From Escherichia coli (GTDB lineage Bacteria > Pseudomonadota > Gammaproteobacteria > Enterobacterales > Enterobacteriaceae), in assembly GCF_036507355.1 (NCBI RefSeq), contig NZ_AP027877.1: DNA of 64,000 bases. One strand, given 5' to 3'. The position numbers and the translations under genes are program-made. The notes below the pieces were generated by a model. It saw only the letters and a list, made by a program, of their open reading frames with translations, searched no databases and was not told the origin of the DNA. Of this stretch, positions 2,561 to 63,616 are shown one piece after another. The number at the start of each line of letters is the position of its first letter. The stretch's first letter is position 1.

Positions 2561-3892
2561 TTACCCTAAATCCGCCATCAACACTTTGGATTTACGCTGG
2601 TAGTTGTACAACTGCTTTTTGCTCTCGGGCAGTAAATCAATATCCACTGGGGTAAATCCACGTTCCTGGAACCAGTGAATACTGCGCGTGGTCAGCACAA
2701 ACAATTTGCTTAAGCCGCTCTGCTTCGCCTGAGCGGCAATGCGTTCCAGCAGAACCTCGCCCCGTGATGAACTGCGGTAATCCGGGTGAACTGCCACACA
2801 GGCCATTTCCCCAATCTTCTCTTCCGGGAACGGATAGAGCGCGGCGCAGGCAATAGTCGTGTTATCGCGCTGAATAATGGTGAATTTGTCGATTTCCATC
2901 TCCAGCTGCTCGCGAGAACGGCGCACCAGAATACCTTGCTGCTCCAGCGGGCGAATCAACTCCAGAATACCGCCGATATCGTTGATTGTTGCGCGACGAA
3001 TCTGCTCGGCGCTTTCCATCACAATCTGCGTACCGATACCGTCGCGTGAGAACAACTCTTGCAACAGCGCGCCATCTTCCTGATAACTGATTAAATGACA
3101 GCGACGCACGCCGCTGCGGCAGGCTTTCACTGCGCCACGCAAAAAGCGCACCGTACCGGAGTTGTAATCGCCTTTCTCTTCCTGGGCTTCTACCCGCGCT
3201 TGCGCTTCGTTAGGGAAAAGTTCGGAGACAATATCACCGTCGTCATTAGTGACGCCTTGGGAAGAGCAAAAACCAATCATCTTTTCAGCTTTCAGTTTGA
3301 TGGCCAGTTGAGTGGCAATCTCTTCCGAGGTCAGGTTAAAGCTCTCGCCAGTGACTGAAACAGCGACCGGCCCCATTAGCACTATTGCACCGCTGTCCAG
3401 TTGACGATGGATCGCGTCTTCATCAATCCGCCGGATACGCCCGCTATGGCAGTAATCCACGCCGTCATCGACGCCCAGCGGCTGGGCAATAATAAAATTG
3501 CCACTGACGACGTTGATATGCGCGCCCTGTAGCGGCGTGTTATTGAGACTCATCGACAGGCGAGCAGTAATATCCAGTTGCAATGTTCCCGCAGCCTGCT
3601 TCACCAGTTCCAGTGTTTTGGCGTCGGTCACACGTATATTCTTGTGATACAGCGGTTCGTGGTGATGCGCAGCCAGATTTGCGTCGATCTGCGGACGTGC
3701 GCCATAGACCACCACCAGACGGATGCCGAGGCTGTGCAACAACCCGATATCATTAACGATACTGGAGAAATTCTCATGCTCAATGGCTTCACCGCCGAGC
3801 ATGATGACAAACGTTTTTCCCCGGTGGGTATTGATATAGGGAACCGAATGGCGGAATCCCTCGACCAGCTCGGTTTTACGTTCCTTTACCAC
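2561..3892 (-). CDS. argA: N-acetylglutamate synthase
   Basis: 443-aa product from GTG start (rc of 3890-3892) matching the ArgA N-terminus [12 protein letters not shown]; amino-acid kinase domain plus C-terminal GNAT domain; the six-frame ORF extends further upstream to 3958. Confidence 0.9.
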
Positions 3893-53554: not shown

Positions 53555-54226
53555 ATGCAGTACCCGATTAACGAGATGTTCCAGACCCTGCAAGGTGAGG
53601 GTTACTTTACCGGCGTCCCCGCCATTTTTATTCGTTTACAGGGATGCCCGGTTGGCTGTGCCTGGTGCGACACCAAACACACCTGGGAAAAGCTTGAGGA
53701 TCGGGAAGTCTCCCTTTTCAGCATTCTGGCGAAGACCAAAGAGAGTGATAAGTGGGGGGCGGCGAGCAGTGAAGACTTGTTGGCTGTCATTAGTCGCCAG
53801 GGATACACCGCGCGGCATGTGGTGATTACGGGTGGTGAGCCTTGCATTCATGATTTGCTACCACTGACTGATCTGCTCGAAAAGAACGGTTTTAGCTGCC
53901 AGATCGAGACCAGTGGTACTCATGAGGTACGCTGCACACCGAATACCTGGGTTACCGTATCGCCAAAGCTGAACATGCGCGGCGGCTATGAAGTGTTGTC
54001 ACAGGCACTGGAGCGAGCCAACGAAATCAAGCATCCAGTGGGGCGCGTACGCGATATTGAAGCACTGGATGAACTATTGGCAACGCTGACCGATGATAAA
54101 CCGCGAGTCATTGCACTGCAGCCGATTAGCCAAAAGGATGATGCCACACGATTGTGCATTGAAACCTGCATTGCGCGTAATTGGCGTTTGTCGATGCAAA
54201 CACATAAATATCTAAATATTGCCTGA
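53555..54226 (+). CDS. queE: 7-carboxy-7-deazaguanine synthase (radical SAM)
   Basis: 223-aa ORF with cysteine cluster CPVGCAWCDTKHTW. Confidence 0.9.
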   Translation: MQYPINEMFQTLQGEGYFTGVPAIFIRLQGCPVGCAWCDTKHTWEKLEDREVSLFSILAKTKESDKWGAASSEDLLAVISRQGYTARHVVITGGEPCIHDLLPLTDLLEKNGFSCQIETSGTHEVRCTPNTWVTVSPKLNMRGGYEVLSQALERANEIKHPVGRVRDIEALDELLATLTDDKPRVIALQPISQKDDATRLCIETCIARNWRLSMQTHKYLNIA

Positions 54227-54419: not shown

Positions 54420-54565
54420 TATAGAATTATTTTAAATATTTGCCTTTTTAATCAATGGGTTAAGTGCTCTTTAACATAATGGATGTGTTGTTTGTGTGAT
54501 ACTGTAAAGTTGGTAGATTGTGACTGGCTTAAAAAATCATTAATTAATAATAGGTTATGTTTAGA
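54420..54565 (+). promoter_or_regulatory. AT-rich CRISPR leader of array 1
   Basis: AT-rich tract ending ...GGTTATGTTTAGA immediately 5' of the first repeat. Confidence 0.6.
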
Positions 54566-54777
54566 GAGTTCCCCGCGCCAGCGGGGATAAACCGGAGAGA
54601 GTCCAGTATCAATCCCGCGATCCGCAGAGTTCCCCGCGCCAGCGGGGATAAACCGCCGTTGCGGATCTTGAGTAGTGCCACGTCACCGAGTTCCCCGCGC
54701 CAGCGGGGATAAACCGGGTACAAAAGAGGCCCCATTCTGGCAGGGCTCGAGTTCCCCGCGCCAGCGGGGATAAACCA
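54566..54777 (+). CRISPR. Type I-E CRISPR array: 4 repeats of 29 bp, 3 spacers of 32 bp
   Basis: Repeats GAGTTCCCCGCGCCAGCGGGGATAAACCG at 54566, 54627, 54688 and 54749 (last ends in A); spacers GAGAGAGTCCAGTATCAATCCCGCGATCCGCA, CCGTTGCGGATCTTGAGTAGTGCCACGTCACC, GGTACAAAAGAGGCCCCATTCTGGCAGGGCTC. Confidence 0.95.
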
Positions 54778-55241
54778 CCATATAACCCGTTATCTCTTTC
54801 TCAAGTTTTTATATTAGCAGTACTTGTAATAAGCAACATATCCACGTAACACCTCATGTTCAAAATAGTTCCCCATGCCAGATAAGTTCACAATTATCGA
54901 TACAAAAAATTAAATTTAATCAAAGTGTTATTTGTATAATTCTTAAGCCGTTAAGAAATTTTAATCTATTATTTTTTTAATATTAATTAATGCCTGTTAA
55001 TTTTTTCTTTAGTATAACAGTGTATTTTTTAAGCTTGTTATTCATTGATTAAGTAATAAATCTGGAAATTTGTCTTTGTTTTGAGGCTAATGAGTGGTTT
55101 TACATAACCGCCTCTATACGCTGTTGATGAATAGTTCTTATGAATAAAGATATCCAGTTCATACTTTAAGTGAAAATTGATAAAGTGCGATTCGTATTGT
55201 CTTTTATTCTAAAGACATCGAGTGTAGTTAATATTCCTTGT

Positions 55242-55368
55242 AAAAACAGGGATAAACCGAACTAGTTAAAGTTTTTATTATGTTCCCTGCATCAGCGGGG
55301 ATAAACCGGACTTGTTATCATTTTTTAAGTTGTCGAACTTATGTTCCCCGCGCCAGCGGGGATAACCA
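55242..55368 (+). CRISPR. Degenerate type I-E CRISPR array remnant: 2 decayed repeats plus a partial repeat, 1 full-length spacer
   Basis: Partial repeat ...CAGGGATAAACCG ending 55259; ATGTTCCCTGCATCAGCGGGGATAAACCG (55280-55308); 32-bp spacer GACTTGTTATCATTTTTTAAGTTGTCGAACTT; ATGTTCCCCGCGCCAGCGGGGATAACCA (55341-55368). Confidence 0.8.
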
Positions 55369-55414
55369 TTCAGGTATGTTCAGGCCGGGCAGTTTCCCGC
55401 CCGGTTTTCCTCAC

Positions 55415-56893
55415 TTACGCATTCGACCAGCTCTGGATCGAATCCGCATTTCCCAATTCCCCATGCATCACTTCATACGATTTTTTCAGAATCACATCAG
55501 TATGTTTGGTTAGGTCTTTGAAAATGCCTTTATTCATCGCGTCGTAGCGTTTGGCATTGCTCTCAATCGGTATAAAGATATCTTTCACGCGAACCATTTT
55601 ATCGACAGCCGTTGCGTAATCCGGGTATAGCCCCAGACCTACCGCGGTATTAATCGCTGCCCCCAGACTTGCACAACCGTTAATGGCGTTACGTCGTGCC
55701 GGAAGGTTGAACACGTCGGCAAAAATCTGCATAAACAGATCGCTGTTCGAACCGCCGCCAGTAATGATCACATGCTTCGCAAAGTGATTCATTTCATTAC
55801 ACATATTGTCGTAATTGTTCTTCAGCGTCAGCGCCACGCTTTCCAGTATCGAACGATATATCCATGCGTAATCCATGCTGGAATCAAAGCCGATCATAAT
55901 CCCGCGTTTGTACGGTTCCCACGGATTGGTCAGCCAGTCCAGCACCGTCATCAGCCCATTACAGCCAGGTGGCACACTAGAGGCTTTCTTGTTGAGTAAA
56001 TCTTCCGGTGAAAGATCCTGCGCCCTGGCATCCTGAATTAACGACTCGCCCAACATGTCGCGCAGCCAGCTCACCGTCCACATGCCTTTGCGAATACCGT
56101 AACCTTCATACAGCAATGTTTGCGGAATAGAAGACATAATCGGCCAGTACGCCACCGGATCTTTCGGCAAGGCTTTGCCGTTCATCATCAATGCGATGTA
56201 AGTGCCAAGAGAAATTACCGCAGTTTCATCATCCAGTAATCCGGCCCCCAGAGCTTCTACCGGTTTATCACTGGTGGTACAAACAACCGGCAGTCCTGCC
56301 GGGAAATGTGTCGCCAGTGCGGCTTGTGGTGTGATATGTCCGAGGACGGTGCCAGGCATTTGCACATCAAACAGCATATGACGAGGGATATTAAACTTCT
56401 CCATTACCGCAGCATCTTCGCTCCATGCCCAGCTCTTATAATCCACCGGCCACTGACCAAAATAGTTGGCGATATTGTCTTTAAACTCGCCGGTTAAGCG
56501 ATGCGTCAGATAACCCGAAAAAGAGGTGACATATGCCACGTCAGGATTCGTAGGTTCGTAAGGGCGTGTAACGCGTGCATCCTGCCAGCTAATCAATGGC
56601 GCAGCTGGCGTGCCATCGGCTTTCAATAACGCACGGCAGCAACGGATGGATCCCAGACCAATACCGACAATATCTTCTTTATTCCCGGCAAACTGACTCA
56701 TCAAATCGTGACCGGCAAAACATAATGATGCCCATAAATCGTCGTCAGGATGTTCTGCAGTATCGGCATCTGGCGTGTGCATCGGCTGCAATAAACCTTT
56801 GCCTTCGCAAACCACATTACCTTCCAGATCGTACATCACCACTTTTGTGCTCTGACTTCCGCCATCAATCCCTATGATATATTTTTTCGACAT
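55415..56893 (-). CDS. ygcE: FGGY-family sugar kinase
   Basis: 492-aa FGGY-family ORF (GIDGGSQSTK). Confidence 0.85.
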   Translation of the reverse strand: MSKKYIIGIDGGSQSTKVVMYDLEGNVVCEGKGLLQPMHTPDADTAEHPDDDLWASLCFAGHDLMSQFAGNKEDIVGIGLGSIRCCRALLKADGTPAAPLISWQDARVTRPYEPTNPDVAYVTSFSGYLTHRLTGEFKDNIANYFGQWPVDYKSWAWSEDAAVMEKFNIPRHMLFDVQMPGTVLGHITPQAALATHFPAGLPVVCTTSDKPVEALGAGLLDDETAVISLGTYIALMMNGKALPKDPVAYWPIMSSIPQTLLYEGYGIRKGMWTVSWLRDMLGESLIQDARAQDLSPEDLLNKKASSVPPGCNGLMTVLDWLTNPWEPYKRGIMIGFDSSMDYAWIYRSILESVALTLKNNYDNMCNEMNHFAKHVIITGGGSNSDLFMQIFADVFNLPARRNAINGCASLGAAINTAVGLGLYPDYATAVDKMVRVKDIFIPIESNAKRYDAMNKGIFKDLTKHTDVILKKSYEVMHGELGNADSIQSWSNA

Positions 56894-56919: not shown

Positions 56920-58197
56920 TTACTTGCTGCTAGCTATTGCGGGGGCGCTATCAGCAGTACGAATTTTTTGGAACAGCAAAAAGGTAAAGACGATCACCAT
57001 GCCGAGTGCCGCCATGCCCATCAGCCACATGTTGCGGTAGGCTTCTGCTGCGGGCAGGGTGTCCTGCCAGTGGCCGATAATCGGGTAAACGAAGACATCC
57101 GGCAGGAATCCAATCACCGAACAAATACCTACCGTGGTGCCCATAATGTAAGACGGTGTTCTCGCTTCGCCAGGGCAGGCCCAGTACAGCCCGCGTGAGG
57201 CGTAACAGGTGAATCCCAGCAGTAAAATCAGGCCAATCCCCATCGCGACCGATTGCGGGTTAGAGTTCGTGACGAGCAGGGCAGTTAACGCCAGCAGGCC
57301 GAGTACGGAAAGGATTTGGATCACGCGGGTAGGGGATTTCACTTTGCTGTAGGTGGTGATTATGCCGCCAAGTGGGCCGCACAGCGCGCGGAATATTTTG
57401 TTGATCACAATCCCCATGTAGCTCGCCGCCACCAGCGACATGCCGTACATTTCGGTCAGATAGTTGGTGGAGTAACTCAGAATGGCGTAGATGGTGAAGA
57501 CACCAAAAATCACCATGCTGCAATACCAGGTGGTGCTGATGCGCAAAACGGCCAGGATGTCGCTAAGCTGGAATGACTGTTTTTCTTCGTTATTGGCACT
57601 ACGCAGGTTATTGTTATCGCTAACAAAAAACCAGCACAGAAGCCCCAACAAGATGTAAACCACACTGTAGATGATAATGACCGTTTTCAGGCTGGCGCTG
57701 TCATCCGGTGCAAAGCGAGAAAAGACCCACATGGTAAACACCGCCAGCGACATTACACCGACGCCGCGCAGCCCTTCCATCCAGCCCATAATTTTCCCTT
57801 GCTCGCTATGATCGCCAAGCAACGATGCGGCTTTAATCGACACCGACCACAGCATTAAAATCGTTGTTATCGCAAAGGCGACCTGAATACAGAGCATTAC
57901 CCACAGCGGTGGATACGTTGCCATTAACAGACCCAGTAATCCGGTAATGATCATCGCGGAAGTAATCATTTTGCGGTGTGAAAATTTATCGGCAATAACG
58001 CCGCTGGGGGCATAAAGAATAATAGCCGCAATACCAAAGGTACTCATTATTAAACCTATCTCGGTATTGCTGAATCCCATAAATTTCGCCATGGGAATTT
58101 GATAAATATAACGTAAATAAGCCAGGTCGAAACTAACGCCGCCGCTAAAACTAATTATCGCGAGGGTTATCCAACGGCGATATGAGTTGTGTTGCAT
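56920..58197 (-). CDS. yqcE: MFS transporter
   Basis: 425-aa 12-TM ORF upstream of ygcE on the same strand. Confidence 0.85.
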   Translation of the reverse strand: MQHNSYRRWITLAIISFSGGVSFDLAYLRYIYQIPMAKFMGFSNTEIGLIMSTFGIAAIILYAPSGVIADKFSHRKMITSAMIITGLLGLLMATYPPLWVMLCIQVAFAITTILMLWSVSIKAASLLGDHSEQGKIMGWMEGLRGVGVMSLAVFTMWVFSRFAPDDSASLKTVIIIYSVVYILLGLLCWFFVSDNNNLRSANNEEKQSFQLSDILAVLRISTTWYCSMVIFGVFTIYAILSYSTNYLTEMYGMSLVAASYMGIVINKIFRALCGPLGGIITTYSKVKSPTRVIQILSVLGLLALTALLVTNSNPQSVAMGIGLILLLGFTCYASRGLYWACPGEARTPSYIMGTTVGICSVIGFLPDVFVYPIIGHWQDTLPAAEAYRNMWLMGMAALGMVIVFTFLLFQKIRTADSAPAIASSK

Positions 58198-58375
58198 ATC
58201 GTATTCCCATTTGTAATAGACAAAAAAAAGAGAAAAGTAAGCCGCCCTTTCAGGTGGATTACTTTTCTCAGGTCTCTAGTAATTGAAATAATAAATAACA
58301 TGGAAAGCAGAGGTGTTGTGTGAGAGTAATCACGCTTCTGCTTTTTAAAACTATTTGATAATGCGAATATCACAC

Positions 58376-58391
58376 TGTGATTACGATCACA
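58376..58391. promoter_or_regulatory. Perfect CRP core site TGTGA-N6-TCACA
   Basis: TGTGAttacgaTCACA in the divergent yqcE / ygcU' intergenic region, about 57 bp upstream of the ygcU' ATG. Confidence 0.5.
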
Positions 58392-58440
58392 TTAGCAGTT
58401 ATGTCCTTATGCTAAAAATTATCTCCAGTTACCAGAGATA

Positions 58441-59571
58441 ATGAGAAAGGTAACTGAGAATATGCAGGCGACGGCGCAATGTGGCGTTCCGCTGGAGGTG
58501 CTGGAAAACGCGTTGCGTGAAAAAGGTTACACCACGGGGCATTCTCCGCAGTCAAAGCCGCTGGCGCAGATGGGCGGCCTGGTAGCAACCCGCAGTATCG
58601 GGCAGTTCTCCACACTCTACGGCGCAATCGAAGATATGGTCGTTGGTCTGGAAGCAGTATTGGCTGATGGCACCGTGACACGTATTAAAAACGTGCCACG
58701 CCGCGCGGCTGGCCCGGACATTCGTCACATCATCATCGGCAACGAAGGTGCATTGTGCTATATCACTGAAGTAACAGTGAAAATCTTTAAATTCACCCCG
58801 GAAAACAACCTCTTCTACGGCTATATCCTGGAAGACATGAAAACCGGCTTCAACATCCTGCGTGAAATCATGGTGGAAGGGTATCGTCCGTCGATCGCTC
58901 GTTTGTATGACGCTGAAGATGGCACCCAACACTTCACGCATTTTGCCGACGGAAAATGCGTGCTGATCTTTATGGCTGAAGGTAACCCTCGCATTGCGAA
59001 GGCGACGGGCGAAGGGATTGCGGAAATCGTTGCCCGCTACCCGCAATGCCAACGCGTGGACAGCAAGCTGATCGAAACCTGGTTTAACAACCTGAACTGG
59101 GGACCGGATAAAGTGGCTGCCGAACGTGTGCAGATCCTCAAAACCGGCAACATGGGCTTTACTACCGAAGTGTCCGGCTGCTGGAGCTGCATCCACGAAA
59201 TCTACGAAAGCGTTATTAACCGTATTCGTACCGAGTTCCCGCACGCCGACGACATCACTATGCTGGGCGGTCACTCCTCTCATAGCTATCAGAACGGCAC
59301 CAACATGTACTTCGTCTACGACTACAACGTTGTCAACTGTAAGCCGGAAGAGGAAATCGACAAGTACCACAATCCGCTCAACAAAATCATTTGCGAAGAA
59401 ACCATTCGCCTCGGTGGTTCGATGGTGCACCACCACGGTATCGGTAAACATCGCGTTCACTGGAGCAAGCTGGAACACGGCAGCGCGTGGGCGTTGCTGG
59501 AAGGGCTGAAAAAGCAATTCGATCCTAACGGCATTATGAATACGGGTACTATCTATCCGATTGAAAAATAA
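58441..59571 (+). CDS. ygcU: FAD-linked oxidoreductase (alkyl-DHAP synthase / GlcD-like), apparently N-terminally truncated
   Basis: 376-aa ORF beginning within the FAD-binding domain (MGGLVATRSIGQFSTLYGAIEDMV); in-frame stop upstream at 58393-58395; family members are normally about 480 aa. Confidence 0.7.
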   Translation: MRKVTENMQATAQCGVPLEVLENALREKGYTTGHSPQSKPLAQMGGLVATRSIGQFSTLYGAIEDMVVGLEAVLADGTVTRIKNVPRRAAGPDIRHIIIGNEGALCYITEVTVKIFKFTPENNLFYGYILEDMKTGFNILREIMVEGYRPSIARLYDAEDGTQHFTHFADGKCVLIFMAEGNPRIAKATGEGIAEIVARYPQCQRVDSKLIETWFNNLNWGPDKVAAERVQILKTGNMGFTTEVSGCWSCIHEIYESVINRIRTEFPHADDITMLGGHSSHSYQNGTNMYFVYDYNVVNCKPEEEIDKYHNPLNKIICEETIRLGGSMVHHHGIGKHRVHWSKLEHGSAWALLEGLKKQFDPNGIMNTGTIYPIEK

Positions 59572-59664
59572 TGTGTCAGGCAGCGTTCCGCGATGATGGG
59601 GCGTTGCCTTTTCGGCTTCTCAGGCGAGAAGCCGTTCTTATTACCGGACAATGAAGGGGTAAAG

Positions 59665-61002
59665 ATGAACACTTCACCGGTGCGAATGGATGATTTACCA
59701 CTTAACCGTTTTCACTGTCGAATTGCTGCGCTCACTTTCGGCGCACACCTGACCGACGGTTATGTTCTCGGCGTCATTGGTTACGCCATTATTCAACTTA
59801 CGCCCGCCATGCAACTGACGCCGTTTATGGCGGGAATGATCGGCGGCTCGGCGCTCCTTGGTTTGTTTCTTGGCAGCCTGGTTCTTGGGTGGATCTCCGA
59901 CCATATTGGTCGGCAAAAAATCTTCACCTTCAGCTTTTTGCTGATTACGCTCGCTTCGTTCCTGCAATTTTTTGCCACCACGCCAGAGCATCTTATTGGA
60001 CTGCGCATTTTGATCGGCATTGGTCTGGGAGGCGATTACTCAGTAGGTCACACCTTGCTGGCTGAATTTTCCCCGCGCCGCCATCGCGGTGTTTTGCTGG
60101 GCGCATTCAGCGTGGTGTGGACCGTAGGCTATGTGCTGGCAAGTATTGCCGGACATCACTTTATTTCCGAAAACCCGGAGGCCTGGCGCTGGCTGCTGGC
60201 ATCGGCAGCTCTGCCCGCGTTGTTGATTACGTTATTACGCTGGGGAACGCCAGAATCGCCACGCTGGCTACTGCGCCAGGGGCGTTTTGCAGAAGCTCAC
60301 GCTATCGTGCATCGCTATTTTGGTCCCCATGTTTTACTGGGCGATGAAGTGGCAACGGCGACCCATAAACACATCAAAACCTTGTTCTCTTCACGCTACT
60401 GGCGGCGCACGGCGTTTAACAGCGTCTTCTTTGTCTGCCTCGTAATCCCATGGTTTGTGATTTATACCTGGCTGCCAACTATCGCCCAGACTATTGGTCT
60501 GGAAGATGCGCTGACTGCCAGCCTGATGCTTAATGCGTTGTTAATTGTGGGCGCGCTGCTGGGATTAGTTCTGACGCACCTGCTGGCACATCGCAAATTT
60601 TTGCTGGGAAGTTTTTTGCTGCTGGCGGCAACGCTGGTAGTAATGGCCTGTTTGCCTTCCGGCAGTTCATTAACGCTGCTGCTTTTTGTTCTCTTCAGCA
60701 CCACCATTTCGGCAGTCAGTAATCTGGTGGGCATTTTGCCTGCGGAAAGTTTTCCTACTGACATTCGCTCGCTGGGCGTCGGTTTTGCCATCGCCATGAG
60801 TCGGTTGGGGGCGGCGGTAAGTACTGGCCTGCTGCCGTGGGTGCTGGCGCAGTGGGGAATGCAAGTCACCTTATTGCTCCTGGCGGCAGTGTTGTTGGTT
60901 GGTTTTGTTGTAACCTGGCTATGGGCACCAGAAACCAAAGCACTCCCGCTGGTGGCGGCGGGAAATGTAGGAGGTGCGAATGAACATTCTGTTAGCGTTT
61001 AA
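59665..61002 (+). CDS. ygcS: MFS sugar-porter-family transporter
   Basis: 445-aa product from ATG 59665 (AGGGG RBS); sugar-porter motifs GRQK and PETK. Confidence 0.85.
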   Translation: MNTSPVRMDDLPLNRFHCRIAALTFGAHLTDGYVLGVIGYAIIQLTPAMQLTPFMAGMIGGSALLGLFLGSLVLGWISDHIGRQKIFTFSFLLITLASFLQFFATTPEHLIGLRILIGIGLGGDYSVGHTLLAEFSPRRHRGVLLGAFSVVWTVGYVLASIAGHHFISENPEAWRWLLASAALPALLITLLRWGTPESPRWLLRQGRFAEAHAIVHRYFGPHVLLGDEVATATHKHIKTLFSSRYWRRTAFNSVFFVCLVIPWFVIYTWLPTIAQTIGLEDALTASLMLNALLIVGALLGLVLTHLLAHRKFLLGSFLLLAATLVVMACLPSGSSLTLLLFVLFSTTISAVSNLVGILPAESFPTDIRSLGVGFAIAMSRLGAAVSTGLLPWVLAQWGMQVTLLLLAAVLLVGFVVTWLWAPETKALPLVAAGNVGGANEHSVSV

Positions 61003-61759
61003 AGCCGAACCGGATGCCGGAATGCTGGCGGAAAAAGAGTGGCAGGCGGCGGCTCAGGGTAATAGCGGACCGGATATTTCGCTACTGCGAAGTTTACTCG
61101 GTGCTGATGAACAGGCTGCCGCCGCGCTGCTGTTGGCGCAGAGAAAAAACGGTACGTCGATGTCTTTAACCGCGTTGAGCATGGGGGATGAACGGGCGTT
61201 GCACTGGCTGCGCTATCTCATGGCTCTTGGGTTTGAGGAAGCTGTATTGCTGGAGACGGCGGCAGATCTGCGCTTTGCGCCGGAATTTGTCGCTCGCCAT
61301 ATTGCCGAATGGCAGCGTCAGAATCCGCTGGATCTGATAATTACCGGCTGCCAAAGCAGCGAAGGGCAGAATGGGCAAACGCCATTTTTGCTGGCGGAAA
61401 TGCTGGGCTGGCCTTGCTTCACCCAGGTGGAGCGTTTCACTCTCGACGCGCCGTTTATCACCCTCGAACAGCGTACTGAACATGGGCTGCGCTGTTGCCG
61501 GGTTCGCTTGCCTGCGGTGATTGCCGTGCGTCAGTGTGGTGAAGTGGCCTTGCCAGTACCGGGAATGCGCCAGCGAATGGCTGCGGGGAAAGCAGCAATT
61601 ATCCGTAAAACTGTTGCTGTCGAATTGCCAGCGATGCAGTGTCTGCAACTGGCAAGAGCAGAGCAACGACGCGGAGCGACGTTGATTGATGGGCAAACGG
61701 TAGCAGAAAAAGCGCAAAAGCTATGGCAGGACTATTTACGCCAAAGGATGCAGCCATGA
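60980..61759 (+). CDS. ygcR: Electron transfer flavoprotein beta-subunit-like protein (FixA-like)
   Basis: 259-aa ORF from ATG 60980 (AGGAGGTG RBS); overlaps ygcS 3' end and ygcQ start. Confidence 0.8.
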   Translation: MNILLAFKAEPDAGMLAEKEWQAAAQGNSGPDISLLRSLLGADEQAAAALLLAQRKNGTSMSLTALSMGDERALHWLRYLMALGFEEAVLLETAADLRFAPEFVARHIAEWQRQNPLDLIITGCQSSEGQNGQTPFLLAEMLGWPCFTQVERFTLDAPFITLEQRTEHGLRCCRVRLPAVIAVRQCGEVALPVPGMRQRMAAGKAAIIRKTVAVELPAMQCLQLARAEQRRGATLIDGQTVAEKAQKLWQDYLRQRMQP

Positions 61760-62616
61760 ATATCGCAATTGTGACAATAAATCAGGAGAATGCCGCATTA
61801 GCGGGCTGGCTGGCGGCGCAGGATGTCAGCGGTTGTACCCTGGCGCACTGGCAAATAGAACCACAGCCCGTAGTGGTGGAACAGGTGCTGGATGCGCTGG
61901 TGGAACAGTGGCAGCGAACGCCTGCGAACGTTGTTCTCTTTCCGCCGGGAACGTTTGGCGATGAACTGTCGACCCGGCTGGCCTGGCGTTTACATGGTGC
62001 AAGCATCTGCCAGGTGACTTCGTTAGAGATTCCAATCGTAAGCGTGCGCAAATCCCACTGGGGAAATGCGCTAACGGCGACGCTGCAAACAGAAAAACGC
62101 CCGCTATGTCTTTCCCTGGCGCGCCAGGCGGGAGCAGATAAAAATGCCACGTTGCCCTCTGGTATGCAGCAACTGAACATAGTCCCAGGTGCGCTTCCGG
62201 ACTGGCTGGTTAGCATAGAGAACCTGAAAAATGTTACTCGCGACCCATTAGCTGAGGCCAGACGGGTGCTGGTGGTGGGGCAGGGCGGAGAGGCAGATAA
62301 CCAGGAAATTGCTATGCTGGCAGAAAAGCTGGGAGCCGAAGTAGGCTACAGTCGGGCACGAGTGATGAACGGTGGCGTTGATGCCGAAAAAGTGATTGGT
62401 ATTTCCGGACATCTGCTGGCACCTGAGGTGTGTATTGTTGTTGGCGCATCCGGTGCGGCAGCGTTAATGGCGGGCGTAAGCAATAGCAAGTTTGTGGTGG
62501 CGATTAATCATGACGCCAGCGCAGCGGTATTTTCACAGGCAGATGTTGGCGTGGTTGATGACTGGAAAGTGGTGCTGGAGGCACTGGTGACAACCATTCA
62601 CGCAGAATGCCAATAA
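61756..62616 (+). CDS. ygcQ: Electron transfer flavoprotein alpha-subunit-like protein (FixB-like)
   Basis: 286-aa ORF; ATG overlaps ygcR stop (ATGA). Confidence 0.8.
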   Translation: MNIAIVTINQENAALAGWLAAQDVSGCTLAHWQIEPQPVVVEQVLDALVEQWQRTPANVVLFPPGTFGDELSTRLAWRLHGASICQVTSLEIPIVSVRKSHWGNALTATLQTEKRPLCLSLARQAGADKNATLPSGMQQLNIVPGALPDWLVSIENLKNVTRDPLAEARRVLVVGQGGEADNQEIAMLAEKLGAEVGYSRARVMNGGVDAEKVIGISGHLLAPEVCIVVGASGAAALMAGVSNSKFVVAINHDASAAVFSQADVGVVDDWKVVLEALVTTIHAECQ

Positions 62617-62619
62617 CGT

Positions 62620-62760
62620 GCTGCCGGATGATCCTGCCTACGGTTCTGGCCTGGGGACTTGTAGGCCTGATAAGACGCGTCAAGCGTCGCATCAGGCGCT
62701 GAATGTCGGATGTGGCGTGCGGCCTACAAATCAAACCAAATTCAATTGGTTACGATTATC
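62620..62760. repeat. BIME: cluster of REP-like palindromes
   Basis: GCCGGATGATCCTGCCTAC, GTAGGCCTGATAAGACGCGTCAAGCGTCGCATCAGGCG, GGATGTGGCGTGCGGCCTAC. Confidence 0.6.
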
Positions 62761-62763
62761 CCG

Positions 62764-63339
62764 TCAAAGCAATTTTTTCGCTAATGTCCAGACTCCGGTA
62801 TTCGTGGTGGAAAGCGCCACGACACCCGCGTTAATCGCATTACGCGCATCTTCTTCATCGCATACCAGCCCGCCAGCAATCAGCGGTTGGCGGATTTTTT
62901 CCGTCACCCAGCCCAGCACTTTGGGCATGCAGCCTGGCAGGATCTCAATACAATCCGGATTCGATTGCGCAACTTGCTTATCAATGTTGTGAAACGAAAT
63001 CGAATCAACAATAAACAGGCGATGAATACAGAAAAAACCTTCCGCTCTTGCCGCTTTTAGCATCGATGCTTTGGTGCTGATAATTCCATCCGCCTCGGTC
63101 ACCAGTTTCAAAAACTGAATCACGACTTCTTTATTTGACGCGCCTTCCAGCAAATCGACATGAATAAAAGCATATTTCCCGGCGTTCTTAATCTTTTTAA
63201 CGATTTGACTAATGGTGCAGATATTGCCGTACAACACGGAAATAAATTGGCATTCAGAATCGATTGCCAGTTGCAGGCTGGCATTATCTTTAACGGCAGC
63301 AATCACCGGATTCTGGCGGAGCAGGTGTAAGAGGGGCAT
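62764..63339 (-). CDS. ygcP: GlpP-family (glycerol-3-phosphate-responsive antiterminator-like) protein
   Basis: 191-aa ORF. Confidence 0.75.
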   Translation of the reverse strand: MPLLHLLRQNPVIAAVKDNASLQLAIDSECQFISVLYGNICTISQIVKKIKNAGKYAFIHVDLLEGASNKEVVIQFLKLVTEADGIISTKASMLKAARAEGFFCIHRLFIVDSISFHNIDKQVAQSNPDCIEILPGCMPKVLGWVTEKIRQPLIAGGLVCDEEDARNAINAGVVALSTTNTGVWTLAKKLL

Positions 63340-63355
63340 AAATTATCCTTATTAT

Positions 63356-63616
63356 TTATCCAAAGCGGTAGGTGATGCCGAATCCGGAAGGTGGATAGCG
63401 CCACTGTTGTAGTGTGGATTCGTCGCACAGCAAACGGCAGGTGCCACACTCCAGGCAACTGCGATAGTCAATACGTAAGTCACCTTCTGGTGTGAGCGAA
63501 AAAAGACCTGCCGGACAGGCGTTAATCAACCGTTCTGCCGTCTGGCGCTCAACGGAGTCAGCCGGAACAATGTGCGGCGCATCAGCAACGCGCCAGAGAT
63601 TACGGGCTACAGACAT
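63356..63616 (-). CDS. ygcO: Ferredoxin-like protein (FixX-like)
   Basis: 86-aa product from ATG (rc 63614-63616) with cysteine motif CLECGTC. Confidence 0.75.
   Translation of the reverse strand: MSVARNLWRVADAPHIVPADSVERQTAERLINACPAGLFSLTPEGDLRIDYRSCLECGTCRLLCDESTLQQWRYPPSGFGITYRFG

Follow-up and report, generated by a model that had tools for sequence, protein, structure and literature searches.

A rare deletion in the Escherichia coli ygc cluster removes ygcW and the start of ygcU and interrupts a conserved leader RNA

In Bacillus subtilis, the antiterminator protein GlpP acts with glycerol-3-phosphate to disrupt terminators in the 5ʹ untranslated regions (UTRs) of glpD, glpFK and glpTQ. 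All of these 5ʹ UTRs have a GlpP binding site with the terminator behind it (PMC9604022). The ygc cluster of Escherichia coli, composed of ygcE, yqcE, ygcW, ygcU, ygcS, ygcR, ygcQ, ygcP, ygcO and ygcN, resembles this system in several respects. The cluster encodes a PF04309 protein, its operons carry a promoter, a conserved leader and a 5ʹ-UTR terminator, and both gene sets are catabolic, with an FGGY kinase and a flavoprotein dehydrogenase among their products. However, the ygc host is Gram-negative, the gene content differs, RNA binding by YgcP is presumed, and one of the two terminators has been deleted in the locus described here. The ygc genes form an orphan cluster, and a search of the literature for ygcP, ygcU and related names turned up no study of its function.

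The locus lies in a 64,000-nucleotide stretch of E. coli DNA (hereafter ‘the window’) and was recognized as the ygc locus from its open reading frames (ORFs) and by comparison with strain K-12. Gene order, orientation, the binding site for CRP and the leader of yqcE are the same as in the K-12 arrangement (ygcW-ygcU-ygcS-ygcR-ygcQ, divergent from yqcE-ygcE), whereas the window lacks a leader terminator, ygcW and codons 1-113 of ygcU, and carries TTGATA instead of TTGACA as the −35 element of the candidate ygcW promoter. Relative to the VAO/PCMH-type FAD-linked oxidases (FAD_binding_4 plus FAD-oxidase_C), the ygcU remnant retains the C-terminal cap and the latter half of the domain that binds FAD, but it is without the first FAD-binding subdomain and the diphosphate loop and so falls outside the domain definition of the family. 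Alleles in which IS1 has inactivated ygcU are found in E. coli strains 720632 and SY033, the former also lacking ygcW and the leader. In contrast, the junction in the window is free of insertion sequences (IS), and its breakpoints differ from those of both IS1 alleles.

A 1,254-bp deletion between yqcE and ygcU

The initial annotation of this stretch had pointed to a gap of only 243 bp (58198-58440) between yqcE and a 376-aa ORF that starts at 58441 and cannot be extended because of an in-frame TAG at 58393-58395, in a protein family with a usual length of about 480 aa. All of these features are present in the sequence, and YgcU of K-12 has 484 aa. The annotation had also placed an SDR gene (ygcW) between yqcE and ygcU in K-12 and had estimated a deletion of 1.2-1.4 kb. 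Comparison with the K-12-derived strain MC1061 (locus L001), which served as the K-12 reference, agrees on both counts, because ygcW (786 bp) and the 484-aa ygcU lie between yqcE and ygcS in that strain and exactly 1,254 bp (L001 4057-5310) are missing from the window. The K-12 alignment that had been proposed as a check located the deletion and its breakpoints to the base. Positions 57900-58455 of the window correspond to L001 3501-4056, with 5 mismatches in 556 positions, and the sequence from 58456 onward corresponds to L001 5311 onward. The lost DNA comprises the final 60 bp of the ygcW leader, the whole of ygcW (the SDR gene), the 69-bp spacer between ygcW and ygcU, and the first 113 codons of ygcU. 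The native spacer between yqcE and ygcW spans 318 bp, of which 258 bp are retained.

The features of the locus are collected in Table 1. The yqcE start codon ends at 58197, immediately before the gap, and the gene diverges from the ygcW operon. Apart from ygcW and ygcU, every gene of the cluster has remained intact in the window.

Table 1. Features of the ygc locus, in window coordinates
Feature	Position	Strand	Description and basis
queE	53555-54226		
Type I-E CRISPR array	between queE and ygcE		
ygcE	55415-56893	−	
yqcE (MFS transporter)	56920-58197	−	425 aa, intact; residues 1-425 align to orthologues (tblastn)
yqcE leader motif	58222-58285	−	Intact; CAATTACTAGAGACCTGAGAAAAGTAAT...TTACTTTTCTC then T8; motif scan, covariance model
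Candidate ygcW promoter	58355-58381	+	Retained; TTGATA, 15 nt, TGTGAT; prediction
CRP binding site	58376-58391	.	Retained; TGTGATTACGATCACA, perfect consensus half-sites; sequence
Predicted yqcE promoter	58418-58447	−	Retained; TTCTCA-18-GATAAT; prediction, consensus scan
ygcW leader, retained 5ʹ part	58426-58455	+	CAGTTACCAGAGATAATGAGAAAGGTAACT; K-12 alignment
Chimeric ORF ygcUʹ	58441-59571	+	376 aa; ORF list, Pfam, K-12 alignment
Deletion junction	58455/58456	.	GGTAACT/GAGAATATG; comparison with K-12 and strain 131
ygcS (MFS sugar transporter)	59593-61002	+	Intact; likely true start 59665
ygcR and ygcQ (homologues of ETF beta and alpha subunits)	60980-62616	+	Intact
ygcP (GlpP-family antiterminator protein, presumed regulator of both leaders)	62764-63339	−	Intact; Pfam PF04309
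ygcP, ygcO, ygcN		−	

Two further observations concern the neighbouring sequences. As annotated, ygcS encodes 469 aa, but an ATG 72 nt downstream has a much better ribosome-binding site, and the 445-aa form that this codon would produce matches orthologues from its first residue. The downstream ATG is probably the true start. The annotated extension (59593-59664) contains a GC-rich hairpin of 9 bp at 59613-59634 (CGGCTTCTC-AGGC-GAGAAGCCG), which would be an intergenic RNA element if translation begins at the later codon. The CRISPR region holds four well-conserved repeats of 29/30 nt (GAGTTCCCCGCGCCAGCGGGGATAAACCG) with a spacing of 61 nt at 54565-54777, and three degenerate repeats about 450 bp beyond them at 55230-55369. 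One assembly that shares the deletion (L003, see below) differs from the window mainly in this region.

At the deletion junction the leader joins ygcU directly. Neither an IS sequence nor a terminal-repeat remnant was found there on comparison with K-12 and with strain 131, the closest intact relative examined, in which the junction context is identical. The microhomology amounts to one nucleotide, a single T that can be assigned to either side. An overlap this short in a junction without an IS indicates illegitimate recombination. Slipped mispairing between two nearby TGAGAA 6-mers was considered and rejected, because both copies are still present at the junction and the repeat was therefore not used. 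The left breakpoint falls in the 5ʹ arm of a hairpin with a 19-bp stem in the ygcW leader, and this position is compatible with breakage or replication slippage provoked by the hairpin, a conjecture on mechanism that derives from the breakpoint position alone.

Loss of the enzymatic core

The chimeric ORF consists of five codons from the ygcW leader joined in frame to residue 114 of YgcU (ORF codon 6, at 58456), such that positions 58456-59571 encode YgcU residues 114-484. The initial annotation was thus correct that ygcU lacks its N-terminal FAD-binding segment. It had also placed the ORF start inside the FAD-binding domain, which holds for the ygcU portion, as this begins in mid-domain, but not for the start codon itself. 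The ATG at 58441 corresponds to L001 4042 and belongs to the ygcW leader rather than to ygcU. In GenBank the remnant starts instead at an ATG at 58462 and is given as a 369-aa ‘putative FAD-linked oxidoreductase YgcU’. This exact 369-aa product is on record for Escherichia coli as BED21166.1 and HCP3730035.1, and an exact look-up of the 376-aa form returned no record. The Shine-Dalgarno contexts of both candidate ATGs are weak.

In K-12, the leader ATG shares its reading frame with the ygcW start, which lies 25 codons further on, and no stop codon intervenes (L001 4042-4119); for this reason the deletion yielded an open chimeric frame. A role for this ATG as the start of a leader peptide or as an alternative ygcW start was rejected, because orthologous leaders carry ATG, CTG, AAG, AGG, ACG or CCG at the position. 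The frame match with ygcW looks coincidental from these alignments.

A Pfam scan, also proposed as a check, did not find a complete FAD-binding domain in the 376-aa product. The match to FAD_binding_4 (PF01565) covers only profile positions 60-138 of 139, whereas in the 484-aa K-12 protein the domain occupies residues 51-190 (profile 1-138 of 139) and is accompanied by FAD-oxidase_C. The latter domain (PF02913) is complete in the remnant (residues 120-370, profile 2-247 of 248, E 9.8e-20). The closest solved relative of full-length YgcU is alkyl-dihydroxyacetonephosphate synthase (PDB 4bby, E 2.7e-40). Its segment PIGGGTSVSYGL aligns with PRTGASATEGGL of YgcU (residues ~79-90), which is absent from the remnant. 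From what is established for the VAO/PCMH family, this glycine-rich loop holds the FAD diphosphate. Because the loop and the first 59 profile positions of FAD_binding_4 are lost, the remnant should not bind FAD. The inactive oxidase predicted by the initial annotation is thereby supported, and YgcUʹ is very probably devoid of activity.

The conservation of the two affected genes was examined in 62 loci anchored on YgcP orthologues and drawn from Escherichia, Serratia, Pantoea, Erwinia, Listeria and Bacillus. Almost all of the approximately 55 loci with a ygcU gene, from Escherichia to Listeria, encode the full-length protein (residues 1-484, to within a few positions). Within Enterobacterales, no proteins of the cluster are better conserved than YgcU (76-100% identity) and YgcW (74-99%); for YgcQ the range is 40-88%. 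Judged by this conservation, the deletion took out the enzymatic core of the cluster. With ygcW gone and YgcUʹ lacking its N-terminal FAD subdomain, the encoded pathway should be broken, on the assumption that YgcW and YgcU are not bypassed. Annotators should therefore flag the 369-aa ‘YgcU’ as a remnant and not as a protein.

A conserved leader RNA ahead of both divergent operons

The hairpin that contains the left breakpoint is an intrinsic terminator in the K-12 ygcW leader. Located at L001 4044-4092, 25 nt before the ygcW ATG, it combines a 19-bp stem and a 4-nt loop with a T-run. In RNA folds, the K-12 hairpin reaches −31 kcal/mol with a z-score of −7.9 against shuffled sequences, compared with a z-score of +0.4 for the equivalent sequence in the window. 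The sequence GGTAACT at the start of the terminator 5ʹ arm is also the partner of an upstream AGTTACC in an alternative, antiterminator stem. The antiterminator stem is complete in the window, whereas the terminator 5ʹ arm has been shortened to 13 nt and the loop, the 3ʹ arm and the T-tract are missing. A scan of the sequence between this leader and ygcQ found no terminator of comparable quality (a long stem followed by a T-run).

An equivalent element with a terminator and an alternative antiterminator stem is present in the yqcE leader. A covariance model built from alignment A1 of 54 distinct leaders identifies the yqcE copy as its sole full match in the window (74.3 bits, E 7e-12) and gives no match at the ygcW-leader remnant (58426-58455). 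In K-12, the same model finds two copies, with scores of 82.1 and 74.3 bits. The leader motif lies there at L001 4027-4092 on the plus strand and 3823-3886 on the minus strand. Upstream of ygcW, all Enterobacterales loci examined share one layout, in which CAGTTACYNGAGA is followed after 3-4 nt by GAGAAARGTAAC, a variable upper stem-loop, the complementary arm and 7-9 T residues. The resulting leader consensus is CAGTTACYNGAGA-N3-4-GAGAAARGTAAC-stem-loop-TTACYTTTCTC-T8. A regular-expression scan of all loci placed this motif upstream of ygcW in 48 loci and upstream of yqcE in 34, and nowhere else, and the covariance model added yqcE copies from Serratia and Pantoea that had escaped the regular expression. 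Besides the window and L001, about 50 loci (L008-L068) carry the leader.

Both helices are maintained across the 54 leaders. The terminator helix is 88% paired (55-66% in slid controls), with 8 of its 19 pairs changed on both sides. For the antiterminator helix AGTTACC/GGTAACT, pairing reaches 93.9%, compared with 15-53% in slid controls, and compensatory changes occur at two pairs (G-C in 37 leaders and A-U in 16; U-A in 35 and C-G in 15). Column 25 of the alignment covaries with each of the two positions with which it can alternatively pair, as is expected for mutually exclusive pairings, although the shuffle controls for covariation ignore phylogeny. Beyond the Enterobacterales, Listeria carries ygcU-ygcP-yqcE-ygcW-ygcE as a single operon with a recognizably related leader (TAGTTGCTAGAGAATTGAGATAAGCGACTCCT...AGGAGTGCGCTTTTTTT) directly after a TTGACT-17-TATACT promoter. 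A related leader was also observed in Bacillus. An Rfam scan of the leader returned nothing at the gathering threshold, with SurA sRNA as the best hit (25.9 bits, against a gathering score of 100). By comparative sequence analysis, the leader is a strongly conserved terminator/antiterminator element, and it appears not to have been catalogued.

The protein presumed to act on this RNA is YgcP, which contains a complete G3P_antiterm domain (PF04309, E 1.4e-62, profile 1-173 of 173). The leader was seen without exception in clusters that encode this protein. In the 62 loci, which were themselves chosen by the presence of YgcP, ygcP co-occurs in most cases with ygcU, ygcW, yqcE and ygcE. Two hallmarks of GlpP-type control can be recognized in the leaders. 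An intrinsic terminator resides in the 5ʹ UTR of both ygcW and yqcE in K-12, and of yqcE alone in the window, and the AGTTACC/GGTAACT helix is a leader structure that competes with the terminator.

The initial annotation had suggested a re-wired promoter for the genes downstream of the deletion. This proposal is only partly borne out, because the native promoter region and the CRP site are retained, and what changes is the loss of the leader terminator. The CRP site was predicted by PhyloScan (PMC1794230), is bound in vivo according to ChIP-seq in ETEC H10407 (PMC4287617), and is bound in vitro with a Kd of ~1.7 nM by Footprint-seq (PMC12871828). The distance between this site and a −10-like hexamer, TAAAAA, would suit a class II promoter with a transcription start immediately ahead of the leader motif. 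A genomic SELEX study lists TTGACA-16-TGTGAT as the ygcW promoter hexamers and gives the same yqcE promoter hexamers as those predicted here (PMC3946193). The −35 difference noted above, in which the window departs from the consensus hexamer of K-12, maps to position 58359. The −35 element of the predicted yqcE promoter is 8 nt from the deletion breakpoint.

These components suggest a regulatory model. Wild-type transcripts initiated at the CRP-dependent promoter would end at the leader terminator unless YgcP, presumably loaded with a phosphorylated pathway intermediate, stabilizes the competing AGTTACC/GGTAACT stem. The inducer would probably be the phosphorylated product of the FGGY kinase YgcE. 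Since the ygcW-leader terminator is missing from the deletion allele, transcription of ygcUʹ-ygcS-ygcR-ygcQ from the native promoter should not need YgcP, whereas the divergent yqcE-ygcE operon would remain regulated through its own intact leader copy. We infer from sequence, from RNA folding and by analogy with GlpP that termination is lost and that YgcP plays this part. Alternatively, the poorly translated 1.1-kb ygcUʹ segment could cause Rho-dependent polarity and thereby lower, rather than raise, the expression of ygcS, ygcR and ygcQ.

By itself, the deletion carries little weight, as it is an ordinary, rare and recent gene-loss allele in a poorly characterized and dispensable catabolic cluster. 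Its value is indirect, in that the breakpoint exposed the conserved, YgcP-associated leader ahead of both divergent ygc operons, which is a better lead than the deletion. Two such leaders, a GlpP-like gene and a high-affinity CRP site provide a concrete regulatory model for the orphan ygc cluster, of which the window allele is a natural variant with one terminator missing. We lean towards the broader reading that the deletion cuts into one copy of a cis-regulatory RNA, previously undescribed and present twice, which is a likely YgcP target and is distributed from Escherichia, Serratia and Pantoea to Listeria, that the window represents a natural terminator-less mutant in which ygcS-ygcR-ygcQ are uncoupled, and that the cluster constitutes the first GlpP-type antitermination regulon in Enterobacteria.

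Distribution, age and origin of the deletion allele

The identical 38-nt junction was found in three further assemblies, GCA_905398585.1 from NCBI and SRR32181686 and SRR31122001 from Logan. The contigs that carry it (L003, L004 and L006) are each 99.99-100% identical to the window over 4-9 kb. Its presence in three independent assemblies excludes both chance and a fault of a single assembly. By contrast with these carriers, none of 5,426 complete RefSeq E. coli genomes has the junction or, with it, the same short ORF and spacing: no single match in them covers at least 80% of window positions 57900-58900, and the match is instead split into two separate pieces. Searches of GTDB species representatives and JGI metagenome contigs also yielded no junction. 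The deleted segment is present at a coverage of at least 80% in 5,047 of the 5,426 genomes and entirely absent from approximately 330. The deletion is thus real and restricted to a lineage that is rare and near-clonal.

This lineage lies unusually far from sequenced E. coli, as the closest of the complete RefSeq genomes reaches 98.8% identity for positions 58456-63400 and 98.5% for positions 30000-53000. The spacer and yqcE stretch (57900-58455) shows 99.8% identity to cattle strain 130. These values suggest a rare lineage of mosaic history for the source strain. Between K-12 and the ygcU remnant, 25 of 1,116 nucleotides but only 2 amino acids differ, and this pattern of purifying selection, together with the near-clonality of the carriers, indicates that the deletion is recent.

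Several other origins of the allele can be weighed against these data. The absence of the junction from complete E. coli genomes, GTDB representatives and JGI metagenomes is what would be expected if the 1.25-kb gap were a sequencing error or a collapsed or mis-joined region of one assembly, but the junction recurs in unrelated sequencing runs, and the flanks, which are collinear with K-12 and strain 131 and whose missing segment is present in relatives, contain no repeats able to cause a collapse. An artefact is therefore extremely unlikely. The proposal that the short form is ancestral, and that K-12-type genomes gained ygcW and the 5ʹ end of ygcU by insertion, would account for the bare length difference and nothing more. 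It would leave unexplained an ORF that begins in the middle of a Pfam domain, the prevalence of the segment in E. coli, the full-length YgcU and YgcW encoded by nearly all orthologous loci (including those of Listeria), and a left breakpoint that halves a conserved RNA hairpin, and we regard it as virtually out of the question. An IS element that landed in ygcU, deleted the adjacent DNA and was later lost is another conceivable route, given that IS1 has struck the locus independently in 720632 (with a deletion) and in SY033 (inside ygcU), and that two contigs with the same ygcU allele end 0-2 nt from 58462, where a repeat could reside. Nevertheless, the junction retains no trace of an IS or its terminal repeats, the two IS1 sites coincide with neither breakpoint, and an IS would not be expected to disappear cleanly once it had deleted the DNA beside it, so that this route seems quite improbable.

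Selection might also have favoured the deletion, either by freeing YgcS and YgcR/YgcQ from YgcP or by shedding a costly or toxic pathway step. Removal of the terminator with the promoter, CRP site and downstream genes left intact fits such a scenario, as does the repeated loss or disruption of the locus in the genomes that lack the segment and in the IS1 alleles. Yet the carriers are so rare and so nearly clonal that there is no sign of allele spread or recurrence, and neutral loss fits equally well; an adaptive origin is doubtful. Nor does the 369/376-aa product seem likely to be a functional, shortened oxidase with a new start codon. The frame is open to the native stop, FAD-oxidase_C is complete and GenBank lists a protein rather than a pseudogene, but 59 of the 139 FAD_binding_4 positions are gone, including the pyrophosphate loop, none of the approximately 55 orthologous loci shows a comparable N-terminal shortening, and both candidate starts have poor ribosome-binding contexts, which makes retained function very unlikely. 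We consider it highly probable that the locus is jointly explained by a lineage-specific deletion through illegitimate recombination, the loss of ygcW and of a functional ygcU, and transcription of ygcUʹ-ygcS-ygcR-ygcQ that would be free of YgcP.

Other alleles of ygcU were encountered in the same searches. The two contigs that end near ATG 58462 (L005, from GCA_025524775.1, and L007, from ERR2242052) are 98.4% and 99.4% identical to the window, and their ends lie 5-7 nt from the junction. They may represent the same deletion, a repeat or IS at this position, mixed alleles in the sample or a coincidence. In strain 720632 (L002), IS1 is accompanied by a deletion that takes in ygcW and the leader and reaches into the 5ʹ end of yqcE, whereas in SY033 (L070) IS1 follows nucleotide 81 of ygcU. 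These independent events show that ygcU has been hit repeatedly in E. coli.
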